A model generated the notes under the pieces. The model was not told the origin of the DNA. It saw only the letters and a list, made by a program, of their open reading frames with translations, and ran no database searches. This document shows, piece after piece, positions 1,199 to 21,746 of a DNA stretch of 32,297 bases. The stretch's first letter is position 1, and the number at the start of each line of letters is the position of its first letter. The position numbers were made by a program, and so were the translations under genes. Source of the DNA: Gammaproteobacteria bacterium. GTDB taxonomy: Bacteria; Pseudomonadota; Gammaproteobacteria; Chromatiales; Chromatiaceae. Where the stretch lies: contig JAUXDV010000001.1 of NCBI GenBank assembly GCA_030620735.1, forward strand, positions 1-32,297. The letters run 5' to 3'.

Positions 1199-3352
1199 TC
1201 ATGATGGCGCCTGCACCTTGCAGGTATTGAAAAAATCGTAGTATTCGAATGCTTCAAGAATACCCGCTGCATGCGGCTGGCCGGCGAAATAGATGCGCTC
1301 CTGATCCTCCAGCTGCGACAACTCCTCATGATGGCGGTTGCTCACAACCACGGCCAGTGTATTACCACGCATCATATCCTCATCAGCGCCGGAACCGCCC
1401 GCCACCAGGAGATGTTCGAGGGGGATATCGAGTCGTTGGGCGACATATCGCAGCGCCTGTCCCTTGGAAGCCCGCGATGGAACAAAGTCAAGGAACTGGC
1501 CGAAAGAGTATTGTATGTTGGCGGTGATCTCCTTCTGCCTGGCAAGGGCGATAATCTCGTCAATAGACGGTCCCTTCTCCGGATCGTAGTACCATGAAAC
1601 CTTGAACTGGCTCTGCTCCCGCCTGGGCTGAAGCTCAAGACCGTGCAGGCCGGAGAGTGCCCTGCGCACCCGGCTGGGATTCCAGTCATGATCGATATGA
1701 TCAGCCCAGTGGTCATCTTCCGTTAATGCCCGTCCATAGTGGATGCGTGTCCCGAGGCTGCTGATCAAGACATCCGGGTGTGGTATTCCGTGCTTCTTGA
1801 TCACGGCCAGTGCAGAATCCAGACGGCGGCCGGTGGCAATGCCGAAAATCACACACTTGCGGTTTTCCCTCACCACCGCGGAAAAATGCTCCAGCATTTG
1901 TTGATTTCCCAGCAGATTCTGATCCAGATCGCTGAAAATGGCGCGATCCCGGTAGCGAACTGCCCGCGGTGCGGGTCGTTCACCGGGAGCAGGGACACTC
2001 CTGCCATGCAGTTTGCCGATACATGCCATGTAACTTTTGGTATGGGCCTGCCAGGTATAGTGTTGCCGCACTCCCTCGATCCCGTTTCGAGACGCCTGCG
2101 ACCATGCCTCAGGATCATCAAGAAAAGTCAGCAAGGCTTTTGTAATGGCCTCTTTATCCAGCGGATCCACCAGTATTCCATTTTGACAGTTGGCAAGAAT
2201 GTCAACGGGCCCGCCATTTTCCGTTGCCACAACGGGCAGACCGCTGGCGGCAGCCTCCAAAATAGTCAGACCGAAAGGTTCGGTCAGCGCCGGATTGATG
2301 AACACGCCGCGACTCGCCGCTGCCAGGCGGTAAATCTCAGGCACCTCTTCGGCGCGGTGGCTCTTGGGCACTGCTACTTTGCCATAGAGATCATAGCTGT
2401 CGATCAGCAGCAGGATGTTGGTCAATACCGATTGAGCACCCGCTTCCATGTCACCGATGTCATCGCGGCTGCCGGCAATAATCAACAGGTTGGCTGCCTG
2501 CTGCAGCTCACTGGATTCACCGAATACCTCCAGCAGGATAAGGATATTTTTACGTTCATCCGGCCGCGACAGGGCAAGAATGAGGGGCTTGCCGGGCTTG
2601 CTTAAAAAACGCTCCAATTGTTCACCAAAGGCGACTTGCTCTCCGTCGCCTGGCGGGTAAAATTGCTGCAAATCGGTGCCTGGTGGAATAACCACCATGC
2701 GTTCCGGATCATAGTAATTGTAGAGCCCGTACTGCTCCTCGATTTCATTTTGCGTGCTGGTGATCACCAGGTCGGCGTTGGCCAGCACCTCCTCCTCTGC
2801 ATCGATGCGGCGCGCAATGTTGTAGGTGTGCTCGATCTCATCGCGCGACAGCCCCCGGGCCAACAGCCGTTTGCGCTTGTCCCGGCCCAGTGAATGCCCC
2901 GTATGGATGAGTGGAACAGCCAGCAGGTTGGCGAGCCGCACCCCAACGTAGCCGGCATCAGCATAGTGACTGTGCACCAGCTCTGGCATGCGGGGCTGAT
3001 CGTTGAGCCAATTGAGCAGGTTGTCAGTGAAGCTGTCAAGATGGTCCCACAGCTGCTCCTTTGGAAGATATTCGTCCGGTCCGGCATCGATGCGGATGAT
3101 GCGCATTTTGTCTGACAGGATCTCGACAGGTGCAGCATAGTCATCGCTGACAGCCGGATCCACCACCCTGCGCGTCACCAGGTCCACGCGTTCGACATCA
3201 TCGTCCATGGAGAGGCTGCGGGCCAAATCCAGCACGTACTTGGTCTGTCCGCCGGTGTCGGCATCACGCCCAAGCTCCAGATCAAGGCCGCGAATCAGGC
3301 CATGAACGCTGATCAGCAGCAGATACCGTTTTTGCGCTTTACTACGTGTCAT
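1199..3352 (-). CDS. sps: sucrose-phosphate synthase: GT4 glycosyltransferase domain fused to a C-terminal SPP-like HAD domain
   Basis: I moved the start to ATG 3350-3352 (MTRSKAQKRYLLLISVHGLIRG...), with GGAGAAACA just upstream on the minus strand. It has GT-B/GT4 motifs (HSHYADAG, EPFGLTILEAAASGLPVVAT). The C-terminal half is HAD-like (AIFSDLDQNLLG ... GGSGADEDMM). Confidence 0.85.
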   Translation of the reverse strand: MTRSKAQKRYLLLISVHGLIRGLDLELGRDADTGGQTKYVLDLARSLSMDDDVERVDLVTRRVVDPAVSDDYAAPVEILSDKMRIIRIDAGPDEYLPKEQLWDHLDSFTDNLLNWLNDQPRMPELVHSHYADAGYVGVRLANLLAVPLIHTGHSLGRDKRKRLLARGLSRDEIEHTYNIARRIDAEEEVLANADLVITSTQNEIEEQYGLYNYYDPERMVVIPPGTDLQQFYPPGDGEQVAFGEQLERFLSKPGKPLILALSRPDERKNILILLEVFGESSELQQAANLLIIAGSRDDIGDMEAGAQSVLTNILLLIDSYDLYGKVAVPKSHRAEEVPEIYRLAAASRGVFINPALTEPFGLTILEAAASGLPVVATENGGPVDILANCQNGILVDPLDKEAITKALLTFLDDPEAWSQASRNGIEGVRQHYTWQAHTKSYMACIGKLHGRSVPAPGERPAPRAVRYRDRAIFSDLDQNLLGNQQMLEHFSAVVRENRKCVIFGIATGRRLDSALAVIKKHGIPHPDVLISSLGTRIHYGRALTEDDHWADHIDHDWNPSRVRRALSGLHGLELQPRREQSQFKVSWYYDPEKGPSIDEIIALARQKEITANIQYSFGQFLDFVPSRASKGQALRYVAQRLDIPLEHLLVAGGSGADEDMMRGNTLAVVVSNRHHEELSQLEDQERIYFAGQPHAAGILEAFEYYDFFNTCKVQAPS

Positions 3353-3856
3353 TGTTTCTCCAAGCTTGATCCGGGAAATAATGGATGAGGCAGAAATCCG
3401 CATCTGAGGTTTTGAGAATTACATAACATGCGGGCATATGCAAGTCTCAACAGGGCGTTCAGACAATGATTGTTCACTGCCTGGGTGGAAAATCACTCAA
3501 GCGATGTCAGGAACCGGGGGTATAGTGTGTTCCTGAGCATGACAAAGAAAAAGAGTCCATGCCAATCCGTTCACAATAACGGCTTGATTGCGAAAGCTTT
3601 GAATGACCGTATGGAGTAGCTAATTTCTGAATCAGCGATCTGAGCAGATTTTGAGGGGTGCTGTGAATGACCGGTCAATGCTCCAATCTGTCATTGAGAG
3701 ATCATGTCAGAATCAACTCTCTACCATTGCTTCCTTTCATCACACCAAATTCGCCCATTTTGAGAAAATTTACTCGATTTATTGTCTCCCCTTGGGAGGG
3801 TTAAAACCCCCAGCTTCAGCTGGCAGCTTTCAGCATGAAGCGGTACTCTATGATGC

Positions 3857-3922
3857 ATGAAAGAGTGTAGAAGAGGAAGTCATTCAGTATTCCAGATTCA
3901 TCTCCACATGGTGTGGTGTACC
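3857..3922 (+). pseudogene. N-terminal stub (~22 codons) of an IS200/IS605-family Y1 transposase (tnpA)
   Basis: MKECRRGSHSVFQIHLHMVWCT matches the conserved TnpA N-terminus (R-G-SHSV-[FY]-x-[IL]-x-[YL]-H-[LM]-VW-[CV]-T-KYR). The expected KYR and the HUH and Tyr motifs are missing, because the frame continues into unrelated AT-rich membrane-protein-like sequence. Hairpins lie upstream, for example CCAGCT-TC-AGCTGG at about 3811-3824. Confidence 0.6.
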
Positions 3923-4153
3923 ACTCTAACTATTCTAGAAAAAAACAATATAAACAAACCCATTATTGCATGCGTGTCAGGCTTAATCATGGCAATCATA
4001 GTCTTCTTTGCAATTTCTATAGTTAACAATTATCCTTCTTTATCACAAACATGGCCTCTAGCAACTTTCTTTGTTTGTATAGGTGCCTTTTGCGGCGCTA
4101 CAGCTAGCGCATTAGCTCGCACTAACAAGGCCAATCAACATGGATCAAAATAA
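3857..4153 (+). CDS. hypothetical small membrane protein (two predicted TM segments); the 5' end is a chimera with the tnpA stub and the true start is uncertain (alternative ATG 3908)
   Basis: A 98-codon open frame is notable in ~38-40% GC DNA. It has hydrophobic stretches PIIACVSGLIMAIIVFFAISIV and WPLATFFVCIGAFCGATASAL. Its last codons and stop codon lie inside attC-like site 1, as is usual for integron cassettes. Confidence 0.4.
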   Translation: MKECRRGSHSVFQIHLHMVWCTTLTILEKNNINKPIIACVSGLIMAIIVFFAISIVNNYPSLSQTWPLATFFVCIGAFCGATASALARTNKANQHGSK

Positions 4154-4210
4154 GTGCCGTGAGTCTTTTTTCGCGGCACTTATTTTGCCCAGTTATTGGC
4201 AACGTTAGCA
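4119..4210 (+). other. attC-like recombination site 1 (~92 nt)
   Basis: The boxes are GCACTAAC (R''-like, 4119-4126), AA, GGCCAAT (L''-like, 4129-4135), then ATTGGC (L', 4195-4200), AAC, GTTAGCA (R', 4204-4210). The central stem is perfect over 13 bp: AAAATAAGTGCCG 4147-4159 pairs with CGGCACTTATTTT 4174-4186. L''/L' pair over 6 bp and R''/R' over CTAAC/GTTAG. Confidence 0.6.
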
Positions 4211-4227
4211 GCAATAAACCGCCCATC

Positions 4228-4256
4228 TTGCAATACGTGCAATAAAGGTATATATT
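4228..4256 (+). promoter_or_regulatory. sigma70-type promoter for brnTA, with a candidate operator
   Basis: The -35 is TTGCAA (4228-4233), the spacer is 17 nt, and the -10 is TATATT (4251-4256). The brnT ATG is at 4264 with no Shine-Dalgarno sequence, so the transcript may be leaderless. TGCAATA is repeated directly at 4229-4235 and 4238-4244, overlapping the -35. Confidence 0.5.
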
Positions 4257-4263
4257 TTATACC

Positions 4264-4527
4264 ATGTATCAATTCGAGTTCGACGAACAAAAAAGCGCAT
4301 CAAATCTGAAAAAGCATGGTATTGACTTTGTTACTGCCCAGGAACTTTGGAGTGATCCCGATCTTATTGAAATTAAGGCAAACTCTGACGATGAACCTCG
4401 TCATTTAATTGTTGCTAGCTTCGCAGGCAAACACTGGTCAGCAGTAGTGACCTATCGTAGAGATACAATCAGGCTTATTTCAGTAAGTCGTTCACGTAAA
4501 TCCGAGGTGCAACTCTATGAAAGCTAA
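4264..4527 (+). CDS. brnT: BrnT-family (DUF497) type II toxin
   Basis: The sequence is MYQFEFDEQKSASNLKKHGIDFVTAQELWSDP...IRLISVSRSRKSEVQLY. It carries the F-E-[FW]-D-x-x-K-x-x-x-N-x-x-KHG-[IV]-x-F signature and a C-terminal IR-[IL]-IS-x-R motif. It overlaps the downstream RHH gene by 11 nt. Confidence 0.8.
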   Translation: MYQFEFDEQKSASNLKKHGIDFVTAQELWSDPDLIEIKANSDDEPRHLIVASFAGKHWSAVVTYRRDTIRLISVSRSRKSEVQLYES

Positions 4528-4771
4528 AGCATTTGATAAAAACTTCGATGAAAACAAACAAGATATCATTGATGATCTTGATCTGACTACCTTACAGCGC
4601 CCTAATCAAAAACAAAAAAGAGTCAATGTTGATTTCCCTTCCTGGGTTATCGAATCTCTTGATAAAGAAGCAAGCCGTGTTGGCGTAACGCGCCAGTCCA
4701 TCATCAAGCTTTGGCTTGTAGAACGTCTTGAGGAAAAAGCTGCCAACAAGGCAAATGTACTCGGACAGTAA
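4517..4771 (+). CDS. brnA: BrnA/CopG-like ribbon-helix-helix antitoxin
   Basis: It is an 84-aa protein immediately downstream of brnT and overlapping it. The C-terminal part RVNVDFPSWVIESLDKEASRVGVTRQSIIKLWLVERL has an RHH pattern. Its stop codon (4769-4771) sits at the base of the attC-like site 2 stem. Confidence 0.7.
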   Translation: MKAKAFDKNFDENKQDIIDDLDLTTLQRPNQKQKRVNVDFPSWVIESLDKEASRVGVTRQSIIKLWLVERLEEKAANKANVLGQ

Positions 4772-4828
4772 AAAGCGCCGCACCTTCGTCGCTCTGCTTT
4801 TTGCTGCCGGTGATTTGCGACGTTAGCA
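4739..4828 (+). other. attC-like recombination site 2 (~90 nt)
   Basis: The boxes are GCTGCCAAC (R''-like, 4739-4747), AA, GGCAAAT (L''-like, 4750-4756), then ATTTGC (L', 4813-4818), GAC, GTTAGCA (R', 4822-4828). CTGCCAAC pairs with GTTAGCAG at 7 of 8 positions. GCAAAT pairs perfectly with ATTTGC. The imperfect central stem includes AAAAAGC 4770-4776 with GCTTTTT 4796-4802, CAG/CTG and CGG/CCG. Confidence 0.6.
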
Positions 4829-4835
4829 GAAATTC

Positions 4836-5366
4836 ATGCATATTCGAATAGCAACAAGTCTGGATCTTGACGATGTCCGCGGGGTCCATTTATGCGCCTT
4901 CCCAGATGGCGAGAGAGAGATTGTCTCGAAACTCGCTATTAATCAACTTTCCGAAGAAACAACTCCGCAAACAATATCCTTAGTGGCTGAAACCGATGGC
5001 ACTGTAGTTGGCCACGTAGCGTTCAGCCCCGTGACAATCGACACCAACGAAAATTTGCAGGGCTATATTTTGGCCCCACTCGGCGTAAAGCCCGAATATC
5101 AAAAGCGTTGCATTGGATCGAAACTAATAGAAAGTGGCATGCATCGGTTATTAGAAATGGAGGTAAATATGCTGTTTGTTTATGGTGACCCTAAATATTA
5201 CAGCAGATTTGGTTTCAACGTCGATGCTTCCGCTCGATATATTCCACCTTACAAGCTTCAATATCCTTTTGGGTGGCAGGCCATCACCCTTAACGAATGT
5301 AATATTGCAACATCACCTGTCAAATTAACTTGCATCGCTTCGTTATGCGACTCAGAACTTTGGTAA
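4836..5366 (+). CDS. GNAT family N-acetyltransferase (YhbS/COG3153-like)
   Basis: The acetyl-CoA-binding region is LGVKPEYQKRCIGSKLIESGM (Q/R-x-x-G-x-G/A-like). VYGDPKYYSRFGF is typical of the YhbS-like subgroup. The ATG lies 13 nt after the R' G|TT of site 2, with no obvious Shine-Dalgarno sequence. Confidence 0.75.
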   Translation: MHIRIATSLDLDDVRGVHLCAFPDGEREIVSKLAINQLSEETTPQTISLVAETDGTVVGHVAFSPVTIDTNENLQGYILAPLGVKPEYQKRCIGSKLIESGMHRLLEMEVNMLFVYGDPKYYSRFGFNVDASARYIPPYKLQYPFGWQAITLNECNIATSPVKLTCIASLCDSELW

Positions 5367-5506
5367 CCACACTGGCCTCTGAGCTTATAAGTTATAAACA
5401 GCCCGCGTATGACTGTTGTGGAGAAATGACAGGCGTCCAACAATCCTTAACAATGGTCATTCACCTGCCATTGGACGCAATCCCCTTATGCAACAGGCTA
5501 TTACTG

Positions 5507-6430
5507 TCACTCCTGTGATTTCCTACGCTTGCGCGCCCTAGGATGCGCCTTATCATACACCTGCGCCAGGTGCTGAAAATCGAGATGGGTATAGATCTGG
5601 GTGGTGCTGATATCGGCATGCCCGAGCAACTCCTGCACGGCGCGCAAGTCACTCGATGACTCCAGCAGGTGGCTGGCGAAGGAGTGGCGCAGCATGTGCG
5701 GATGCAGGTGCTGCGCAAGCCCCTGCTGCTGCGCACGATATGCCAGGCGCTGCTGTACCGTTCGCGGACTGATGCGCTTGCCTCGCTTGCTAACAAACAG
5801 CGCCTGCTCCTGTGTGGATGCAAGTTGGGAACGCGCCTTCAACCAGGCATCCAGGGCATTGCGGGCCATGCCGCCAACCGGAACCCGTCGTGTTTTTGCC
5901 CCTTTACCGGTTACCTCCAGTTGATCACCAACGGCAGGCAAATCCTCCACATCCAGCGACACCAGTTCGGCAAGGCGCAAACCTGATGAGTAGAAGAGTT
6001 CCATCATGGCGCGGTCGCGCAGCAGCAGTGGGTCGCGGCCGTGCATATTCAGCAGTTGTGCAACCTCGTCGGCATCAGCCAGATGCGGCAACGGGCGCTT
6101 CACCTTTGGCGCACGCACTCCCTCTGCGGGATTCTGCGTTGTCTCCCCCTCTCGAAGCAGATAACGATAGAAACAGCGCAGACTGGAGAGTTGCCGTTGC
6201 AGGCTCTTGCCGCCAATCCCATCGCGATGGCGGCTGGCAATCCACGTCCGAACCTGGTGTTGGCGCACCTGTGGCCAGCGTATCTGTTCGCCAAAGGGTA
6301 GTTGCTTCTGCAACCACGCCGAGAACTGTTTCAGATCCCGCTGGTAACTCTCCAGCGTGGCCGCAGAGAGACGGCGTTCATAGCGGATATAATCAAGAAA
6401 TGCAGCGATCAGGTCAACAGCGTGACTCAT
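5507..6430 (-). CDS. xerC: tyrosine recombinase XerC
   Basis: The protein is 307 aa. It has an N-terminal SAM-like domain ([23 protein letters not shown]). The catalytic region includes [12 protein letters not shown] and [13 protein letters not shown]. It sits in the conserved dapF-DUF484-xerC operon. Its ATG overlaps the upstream gene's TGA (ATGA at 6427-6430). Confidence 0.9.
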
Positions 6431-9346: not shown

Positions 9347-9458
9347 GGATTTTGCCACGTAATAACAACACACTAATCCTAACCCATAAACCGTGATTAT
9401 TTCAAAAATATGGTAAAGTCCGCCTCATATCAATCAATGACCATGAGACACACAAGAG

Positions 9459-9842
9459 ATGAAGTATATTGTTGAATCACAAAAAAGTCTGGAGCAGGCT
9501 GCAGCCGACCTGGAAGCCGCTGTCGTCAAGCACAAGTTTGGCGTCCTGCATGTTCACGATCTGCAGGCGACCCTGAAAAACAAAGGCATTGATTTTCCCA
9601 ATGGATGCAAAGTTTTTGAAGTCTGCAATCCTCACAAGGCAAACACTGTACTCAACGAGGACATGAGTCTGAACATGGCACTGCCCTGCCGCATCTCCGT
9701 GTGGGAAGAGGATGGAACAACTAAAATCGGCATGCTCAGCCCCAAAGCCCTGCTGTCGGCGTTGTCGGACTCTCCTGTGCTCGCAAAGGTTGCCGAAGAG
9801 GTTGAAGCGATCTCGATCGACATCATCAATGACGCGAAGTAG
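9459..9842 (+). CDS. DUF302 domain protein
   Basis: It is 127 aa. The pattern KHKFGVLHVHDLQATLKNKGIDF...VFEVCNP...MALPCRISVWEEDG matches the DUF302 fold family as I recall it. Confidence 0.7.
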   Translation: MKYIVESQKSLEQAAADLEAAVVKHKFGVLHVHDLQATLKNKGIDFPNGCKVFEVCNPHKANTVLNEDMSLNMALPCRISVWEEDGTTKIGMLSPKALLSALSDSPVLAKVAEEVEAISIDIINDAK

Positions 9843-10430: not shown

Positions 10431-10451
10431 TGCTCATTCAACCGGTGAGTC

Positions 10452-10472
10452 CCCTCTCCCTTTGGGAGAGGG
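10452..10472. repeat. GC-rich hairpin (REP-like) between convergent genes
   Basis: CCCTCTCCC-TTT-GGGAGAGGG forms a 9-bp stem and is followed by TTAGGGTGAGGGAGG. It has no U-tract on either strand, so it is not a canonical intrinsic terminator. It lies between the DUF3592 stop (10430) and the pat stop (10491). Confidence 0.6.
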
Positions 10473-10490
10473 TTAGGGTGAGGGAGGACG

Positions 10491-14335: not shown

Positions 14336-14500
14336 CTTAGTCGTTGTCCAAAAATAACTGCCCGATCCTGCTTGCCCTGTTGTCCCTATTCTGCGTTGCA
14401 GCAAGAGTTACATAACCCTGCTATGCGCCCCTTGCTGCGCCTTGAATACGAACAACATTGCTGCGCGATATCGGCAAGTTATTTATGGACAACTCCTTAG
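14336..14500 (+). mobile_element. 165-bp MITE, copy 1
   Basis: The terminal inverted repeats are TTGTCCAAAAATAACTGCCCGAT (left) and the reverse complement TTGTCCATAAATAACTTGCCGAT (right). Both ends are bounded by CTTAG. A second copy of the same length lies at 20548-20712, with ~19 substitutions and no indels by eye. Confidence 0.8.
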
Positions 14501-20547: not shown

Positions 20548-20712
20548 CTTAGGTGGCGTCCAAAAATAACTTACCGATCCTGCTTGTCCTGTTGTCCGTC
20601 TTCTGCGTTTCAGCAAAAGTCACATAACCCGGCTATGCGCCTCTTGCTGCGCCTTGAATACGAACAACATTACTGCGCGATATCGGCAACTTATTTCTGG
20701 ACGACTCCTTAG
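20548..20712 (+). mobile_element. 165-bp MITE, copy 2
   Basis: It has the same length and orientation as copy 1 and is bounded by CTTAG at 20548-20552 and 20708-20712. An extra solo TIR-like GTTGTCCGTAAAT lies just upstream at 20524-20536. Confidence 0.8.
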
Positions 20713-21552: not shown

Positions 21553-21746
21553 TTTCAGGGTGATTACTACCGTGTTCGATAGTTGGTCGGTTTCTTGAGC
21601 CTTGCATTTACCCCGGGAGTGGAATGTATTACTGGTGTGCATGTCCGCCTTGAGCGGAAAGCCTTATGTGATACCTGAAACACCCACTTGAACTATTAAG
21701 GTTCAAGGGTATGATCGACGCCGGCATCCGTGGTATCACCCTACTT
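21553..21746 (+). ncRNA. ssrS: 6S RNA
   Basis: It holds the conserved zapA-ssrS-ygfA position. The closing helix is GGGTGAT (21558-21564) with ATCACCC (21735-21741). The 3'-half CACCCACTTGAAC-TATTAA-GGTTCAAGGGTA parallels E. coli 6S CACCUUGAACCAAGGGUUCAAGGGUUA. The ends are approximate, within about 10 nt. Confidence 0.7.

Follow-up and report, generated by a model that had tools for sequence, protein, structure and literature searches.

The window analyzed here, a stretch of 32,297 nucleotides from a Chromatiaceae genome (Gammaproteobacteria bacterium, GenBank assembly GCA_030620735.1, contig JAUXDV010000001.1), very probably carries a short fragment of an integron cassette array between sps, encoding a sucrose-phosphate synthase, and xerC. 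We give a probability of roughly 0.93 to the reading that this island is an integrase-less array, i.e., a cluster of attC sites lacking an integron integrase (CALIN), consisting of a 5'-incomplete cassette with attC site 1, a complete brnTA toxin-antitoxin cassette with attC site 2, and a GNAT acetyltransferase cassette without an attC. [quoted passage not shown] The two sites of the window lie 618 bp apart on one strand, the cassettes are co-oriented, and neither intI nor an intI pseudogene is found nearby, so that the island falls under this definition. It extends from about 3710 to 5506 (∼1.8 kb) between two leftward-reading genes, and its four open reading frames (ORFs) all lie on the + strand. 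The G+C content is 0.40 to 0.44 across positions 3501-5500, compared with 0.53 to 0.59 in the flanks, in agreement with the low value reported in an earlier note on this DNA, which had proposed the array from the letters alone.

Both attC sites are present where that note had placed them and have the layout it described. Site 1 (4120-4210, + strand, 91 nt) reads CACTAAC-AAG-GCCAAT ... ATTGGC-AAC-GTTAGCA, with the crossover point at G4204|T4205, and site 2 (4741-4828, + strand, 88 nt) reads TGCCAAC-AAG-GCAAAT ... ATTTGC-GAC-GTTAGCA, with the crossover point at G4822|T4823. The AAC and GTT triplets are exact in both, and the 3' ends have the core-like box GTTAGCAG in common. The window contains two copies, and no more, of the 10-mer ACGTTAGCAG (at 4202 and 4820); taken alone, this is not significant, as at least two matches were found in 38 of 100 shuffles when one mismatch was allowed. 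The terminal stems are unrelated in sequence: that of site 1 has the perfect 13 bp already described (4147-4159 with 4174-4186) and extends to 17-nt arms that are 94% complementary. The stop codons of the upstream ORFs (4151-4153 and 4769-4771) lie within the 5' hairpin arms, which bears out the claim that the last codons of these genes supply the R''/L'' boxes. Both cassette ORFs read R''/L'' in the same frame (at 4121-4153 and 4739-4771), with the result that two unrelated proteins end with a common ...NKAN... motif encoded by the recombination site.

When folded as single-stranded DNA, each site yields, on either strand, a single long imperfect hairpin in which the end boxes are paired, including R'' with R'. 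The folding energies of the + and - strands are -26.8 and -24.7 kcal/mol for site 1 (z scores of -7.8 and -6.6, with 0 of 200 shuffles folding as well) and -20.1 and -20.7 kcal/mol for site 2 (z scores of -2.9 and -2.8, with 2 of 200 shuffles folding as well). Each hairpin contains an unpaired spacer of 3 x 3 nt (AAG/AAC in site 1, AAG/GAC in site 2) and three one-base bulges, 4 nt apart, on the R''/L'' arm, so that the extrahelical bases expected of attC sites are seen; at the three bulge positions, the bottom strand of site 1 reads G, T, and T. A search with Rfam models over the island gave no match even at E values up to 1, and a terminator scan called neither site and showed no T-tail at either.

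These features agree with what is known of attC sites, whose defining unpaired features are the central spacer, extrahelical bases near L'', and a variable terminal structure (PMC5027507). In attCoxa2 the extrahelical bases are G16, A20, and T24 (PMC5027507), and the bulges on the L'' arm of the window sites show the same spacing of 4 nt. The AAC/GTT boxes, the unpaired spacer, and the variable terminal stem are found alike in sedentary attC sites (the VCRs of Vibrio) and in mobile ones (arr-3, aadA7, and oxa2), and structure is kept while sequence varies, as in classical attC sites. In contrast to these, the window spacer measures 3 x 3 nt versus about 5 nt, GTTAGCA stands in place of a strict GTTRRRY core, and the sub-type to which the window sites belong (AACAAGGCNAAT ... 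ATTNGCNACGTTAG) is unusually conserved in sequence across distant taxa.

To place the two sites in a family, we scanned one genome per species, 185,579 species in all, for the pattern AACAAGGCNNAT-N(40-70)-ATNNGCNACGTTAG. This yielded 117 matches (loci L001 to L117), compared with about 8 expected by chance according to our own estimate. The hosts include Gammaproteobacteria (Sedimenticola, Endoriftia, tubeworm symbionts, Methylobacter luteus, and Neptuniibacter), Betaproteobacteria (Aquabacterium, Thauera, Nitrosomonas, and Gallionella), and Zetaproteobacteria (Mariprofundus ferrooxydans PV-1), as well as Desulfobacterales, Nitrospirae, Chloroflexota, Bacteroidota, Planctomycetota, and cyanobacteria. 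Assignments that come from short contigs of metagenome-assembled genomes (MAGs) need care, but several hosts are isolates, showing that the spread is not solely a binning artifact. The conserved end boxes are present in all 117 matches, and nearly all of these fold into the same end-paired hairpin. Site 2 shares 96% identity with a site of the isolate Aquabacterium sp. G14 (L032) and 91% with one of Thauera propionica. Such strong conservation of an attC sub-type across classes and phyla points to a widely shared cassette pool. A site in a MAG of Eudoraea (Flavobacteriaceae; L108, 510-602) is 88% identical to site 1, and its hairpin tip is inverted relative to positions 4160-4173 of the window (CGAAAAAAGACTC versus GAGTCTTTTTTCG), which looks like a flip of the loop within the palindrome.

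The hairpin of the family is supported by covariation. We aligned 107 sequences, leaving out the window and the near-copies L101 and L108; the end boxes of these sequences are set by the search pattern used to gather them, and compensatory double changes were found in 12 of the 20 consensus pairs, including at positions that the pattern leaves free. The structure with three bulges is 92.9% paired, compared with 24 to 46% when the partners are slid by one to three columns, and its covariation score is 0.341, compared with at most 0.096 in the slid controls. None of 500 shuffles reached the observed score. The double-change cells number 319, versus 91 ± 9 in shuffles. The third bulge is an A in 98 of the 107 sequences, i.e., a T on the bottom strand. 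Conserved structure around unrelated central sequence, which the earlier note had taken as the hallmark of attC sites, thus holds for the family as a whole. The same note had cautioned that GTTAGCA departs from GTTRRRY; this is true, yet it poses no problem for the family, in which GTTAGC is the core of 35 of the 107 members.

From this alignment we built a covariance model (R1) and scanned the window with filters off. On the + strand, the model recovered site 2 (4740-4829; 91.9 bits, E = 5e-23) and site 1 (4119-4211; 75.0 bits, E = 2e-18). On the - strand, the same two places scored 15 and 12 bits (E = 0.037 and 0.38), and all other matches in the 32-kb window had E values above 1. A third attC at 5444-5534 (+ strand) was considered and rejected: it scored 7.1 bits (E = 6.3), did not fold into a hairpin, and its 3' half is xerC coding sequence (from 5507) that is conserved in relatives lacking the array. 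Across the first 100 loci, R1 found 196 sites at an E value below 1e-3. At every tallied locus with at least three sites, all of them lie on one strand, at distances that range from a few hundred to about 1,500 bp; there are 12 sites at L058, 7 each at L067 and L025, and 5 each at L066, L036, L072, and L057. This is the architecture of cassette arrays. When applied to three clinical class 1 integrons, the model detected the attC of arr-3 (35.7 bits, E = 1e-7), aligning to it via the stretches TAAC-AA, CGG-A-C, and CGTTAG, as well as that of aac(6')-Ib4 (21.8 bits, E = 8e-4) and, weakly, that of aac(6')-IIc (16.9 bits), all on the correct strand and abutting the gene ends.

The family is also associated with integron integrases. 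We searched with tblastn using IntI1 and VchIntIA sequences, the IntI1 query being 100% identical to annotated intI1 genes. Full-length homologues with 42 to 49% identity were found at L011, L059, L078, L091, and L110, the match at L110 being split into two adjacent pieces. L095 has a C-terminal partial match (residues ∼147-328, 48% identity) and a weak full-length match (32%), and four further loci contain fragments. The intI ORFs of L011, L078, L091, and L059 score 402 to 460 bits on the NCBIfam model TIGR02249, "integron integrase" (cutoff, 265). At L011, L078, and L091, a site matching the pattern follows the first ORF beside intI and lies on the strand opposite to intI, which is the canonical layout; at L059, the site and intI share a strand, with the site about 5.7 kb farther downstream.

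We regard cassette modularity, as read from DNA comparisons, as the strongest evidence for the integron reading. The exact BrnA protein of the window is encoded on 14 public contigs, and a brnTA block of about 616 bp (window 4210-4825) is found in three different array contexts at 95 to 99% identity. This is the 618-bp cassette (4205-4822, + strand, G|TT to G|TT) that the earlier note had predicted from the crossover points, and it behaves as a discrete block in all three arrays. In the first context (L122 and L124 to L128), the match is 95.5% identical and covers 4210-4825 only, with a YoeB/Phd module upstream and a Phd/ParE cassette downstream. In the second (L101/L123 and L130), it is 97 to 99% identical and extends to about 5425 in L101/L123, where the GNAT cassette follows as in the window, while in L130 it ends at 4797; an extra 492-bp cassette lies upstream. 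The window itself is the third context, with attC site 1 upstream and the GNAT cassette downstream. In L129, a further copy of the block (97.7% identical) forms the start of a match that continues to 5169. In all comparisons, similarity starts at ACG|TTAGCAGCAAT and stops at ...GCRRCG|TTA, that is, at the G|TT crossover points.

The extra 492-bp cassette of L101/L123 and L130 ends in a different attC (24.6 bits with R1), and in L101 it is preceded by a copy of site 1 that is 93% identical. The window arrangement equals that of L101 minus this cassette, as by precise attC x attC excision. The GNAT cassette ends at the same point in L101, showing that its truncation predates the split of the two contexts. 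The L122-type array is also integrase-less: it encodes DUF4258, YoeB/Phd, BrnTA, Phd/ParE, SnoaL, EthD, GNAT, and glyoxalase proteins and is flanked by a copper-ATPase region and a urease operon. Its YoeB/Phd module (L122 1150-1750, also in L124 to L128) is reversed and bounded by inverted GTTAAGGC ... GCCTTAAC boxes, with no complete attC to its right; possibly, it is a cassette that has been inverted. In L101, an insert of about 168 bp (3596-3763) splits brnT and inactivates the toxin gene, leaving brnA intact; neither the window, L129, and L130 nor the L122-type arrays have this insert, which may be a small mobile element.

The central cassette carries a type II toxin-antitoxin pair of the BrnTA kind: brnT (4264-4527, + strand; PF04365, 78.4 bits, cutoff 34.5) precedes brnA (4517-4771, + strand; NF047399, 113.9 bits, cutoff 60) and overlaps it by 11 nt, the last codons of brnA traversing R''/L'' of site 2. 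A promoter-like TTGCAA-17-TATATT lies inside the cassette ahead of brnT (4228-4256). A type II pair in one cassette with a promoter-like site resembles the toxin-antitoxin cassettes of chromosomal integrons, such as those of the Vibrio cholerae superintegron (PMC13108822), and so do the YoeB/Phd and Phd/ParE cassettes that accompany the same brnTA cassette in the L122-type array. Unlike in those systems, the family here is BrnTA, and a stabilizing role is suggested by analogy. The third cassette (4823-5425, + strand), with its GNAT ORF at 4836-5366, has no terminal attC. The first consists of a small hydrophobic ORF (3989-4153, + strand) whose start codon is uncertain and whose last codons traverse R''/L'' of site 1. 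It has no recognizable 5' boundary, no G|TT being found upstream, and it is fused in frame to a possible N-terminal remnant of an IS200/IS605-type tnpA (RRGSHSVFQIHLHMVWCT; 3857-3935, + strand). Together these form a 98-codon ORF (3857-4153, + strand), of which about 25 N-terminal codons are IS200/IS605-like. The tnpA stub claimed by the earlier note has found weak backing over about 20 residues, with tblastn E values of 1 to 9 and 7 of the 12 matches listed falling inside annotated IS200/IS605 tnpA genes, and none from a Pfam search, which gave no match for it.

No intI is present in the window. When searched with IntI1 and VchIntIA, only xerC matched, with 29 to 31% identity, and no intI pseudogene was found in the island (3380-5560 examined) or in the relatives L131 and L132. 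A complete integron, with intI, attI, and the Pc promoter next to the first cassette, is therefore not what the window contains; left of the island lies the native upstream region of sps, common to relatives. The earlier claim that intI is missing holds for the 4.1 kb to the left of the array and the 27 kb to its right, and it does not necessarily extend to the whole genome. The XerC of the window scores 371 bits on TIGR02224 (cutoff, 335) and 124 bits on TIGR02249 (cutoff, 265) and, judged by these scores, is an ordinary XerC. A functional tie between this gene and the array was considered and rejected: it encodes a standard XerC of the same length as in relatives, and other arrays bearing the same cassettes have no xerC nearby. 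Nor does it qualify as the array integrase, being convergent with the cassettes and located at the wrong end.

Comparison with relatives defines the edges of the island. Four relatives whose XerC is 94 to 82% identical (L118 to L121) are similar to the window exactly up to the xerC stop codon at 5507; past this point, no attC is found, and the gene content differs among all four. Two others, with a synthase 96 to 98% identical (L131 and L132), have the upstream region in common up to about 3700 and likewise no attC. These two end points place the island at about 3710-5506 and make the sps-xerC junction peculiar to this genome. The comparison thus provided the relatives without an array that could be expected and no simple empty site, since none of them has an sps-xerC junction.

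The island shares further features with known CALINs, namely its small size, its nonresistance cargo, and the insertion sequence (IS) remnant at one edge. It shows no essential difference from a typical one; its end cassettes are truncated, and close relatives do not have its junction between sps and xerC. Cury et al., who introduced IntegronFinder in 2016, reported 279 CALINs in about 2,500 genomes and discussed the same possible origins and the idea of cassette reservoirs (PMC4889954).

A serious possibility, with the odds somewhat against it, is that the attC sites are real and the array was split off by a rearrangement from a complete integron, the intI of which is located at another place in the same genome and still shuffles the cassettes. 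Rearrangement has been named as one origin of CALINs, and many genomes contain both a CALIN and a complete integron (PMC4889954). The left end of the island shows signs of such an event, with its possible IS200/IS605 remnant and a cassette lacking a 5' boundary, and the uniqueness of the sps-xerC junction is also consistent with it. However, this explanation finds no support in the window, where the flanking sequence on both sides of the array is free of intI, and the other contexts of the same cassettes (L122 to L128, including L123) have no intI within about 10 kb.

Unlikely, in our judgment, is an explanation by which the block was placed here, in L101, and in L129 without an integron integrase, through homologous recombination at, or transposition with, the IS200/IS605-like remnant and an element that we call X'. 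This element (3618-3683, + strand) comprises about 60 conserved nt native to the sps upstream region, and the island begins about 25 to 40 nt to its right. Copies are found at L101 4877-4942, at L129 1-54, and, on the - strand, at L131 ∼9400-9480 and L136 2115-2160; similarity stops at GGTCAATRC in every copy. X' abuts the brnTA-GNAT block in L101, there on the other side of the block, and is fused to an attC tail in L129. A metagenome scan for X' gave one further copy, which was uninformative, being at a contig end. X' may mark either the end of a repeat or a hot spot of recombination. Several facts speak for movement of this kind: the brnTA-attC-GNAT block is 97 to 99% identical and carries the same truncation in the window, L101, and L129, yet has different flanks; a copy of X' lies no more than 40 nt from the block in all three contexts; and the right end has no attC, which makes insertion of the whole block by an integrase unlikely. 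On the other hand, X' is native upstream of sps in relatives without the array, only four copies of it were found, no intact transposase is present, and ordinary rearrangement among close relatives accounts for the same facts. The more specific proposal, that the block moved whole between loci of related marine Gammaproteobacteria without an integrase and with X' as a recombination or landing site, we hold to be rather improbable. Such movement might have involved an IS200/IS605-type transposase acting on hairpins, and 3857-3935 may be what is left of one. If true, integrase-independent movement of array fragments mediated by X' would be mildly novel.

That the hairpins are instead a lineage-specific repetitive extragenic palindromic (REP) element or bidirectional terminators unrelated to integrons is largely refuted, and we give it almost no weight: they do have strong stems directly 3' of ORFs, and other short REP-like repeats exist in this genome, but the 32-kb window contains no more than two copies, which both lie in the low-G+C island and lack a run of T's, relatives with the same core genes lack them, their family spans phyla in co-oriented arrays and beside intI, and the cassette between them travels as a unit. 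The refuting outcome raised in the earlier note, hairpins downstream of many unrelated core genes, did not come about within the window, and since the R1 sites are oriented, co-oriented with genes, and confined to the island, they do not form a dispersed REP family. As for the REP-like repeats themselves, sequences 85 to 90% identical over 30 to 39 nt are common to intergenic places of the window (10450-10484, 14343-14381, 14470-14499, and 20558-20593) and to the L101 MAG (2135-2205), which suggests that the two organisms are related.

Several points weigh against the assignment as an integrase-less cassette array. The R'' and R' boxes each differ from RYYYAAC and GTTRRRY at two positions. R1 was seeded with a pattern derived from these very sites, making the evidence from its end columns circular, and it missed the attC sites of dfrA17 and aadA5 in the clinical integrons, from which it follows that the family is a sub-type of classical attC and that R1 is no general attC detector. 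Many family members lie on MAG contigs, where the binning of cassette arrays is unreliable. With an incomplete cassette at either end, the array could be a fossil in decay, brnTA being the only cassette that can still be excised. Finally, cassette recombination at this locus is a prediction from sequence.

If the island is a CALIN, a mechanism can be outlined from published work on attC recombination (PMC4889954 and PMC5027507). The bottom strand of each attC would fold into an imperfect hairpin and serve as the substrate of IntI, and the R box, the unpaired spacer, the three extrahelical bases, and the variable tip would be recognized by the integron integrase. Cutting between G and TT of the R' core would then release a cassette as a circle or allow its exchange. 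The brnTA cassette, the only one between two intact sites, would for this reason be the only one excisable, and its 618-bp circle would carry the junction ...ATTTGCGACG|TTAGCAGCAAT. As the integrase that would have built the array is not here, the cassettes could move only with IntI supplied in trans, be it encoded at another place in the genome or brought in by an incoming element. Probably transcribed from a promoter within the cassette, the brnTA pair may represent self-expressed, addictive cargo of the kind that is common in chromosomal arrays and stabilizes them. Loss of the integrase could have come about by rearrangement, by IS-mediated deletion, or by transfer of the block.

The left neighbor of the island, sps, is listed as an ORF of 734 amino acids at 1199-3403 (- strand), which is probably 17 codons too long; its closest homologues have 717 amino acids and cover 98% of the query, and we place the start near 3352. 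On the right lies xerC (5507-6430, - strand). Exact-protein look-ups of BrnT, the GNAT protein, and DapF returned nothing on record. Farther along the window, a 6S (SsrS) RNA gene is found at 21561-21740 (+ strand; Rfam RF00013, 80.1 bits, gathering score 46.4).

The island adds one well-documented example to a large and known class, that of cassette arrays without an integrase. These are regarded as reservoirs for incoming integrons, an already established idea that the present case leaves unchanged. What the comparisons show in addition is a BrnTA cassette circulating among different chromosomal arrays in marine bacteria, as well as an attC sub-type common to several phyla.

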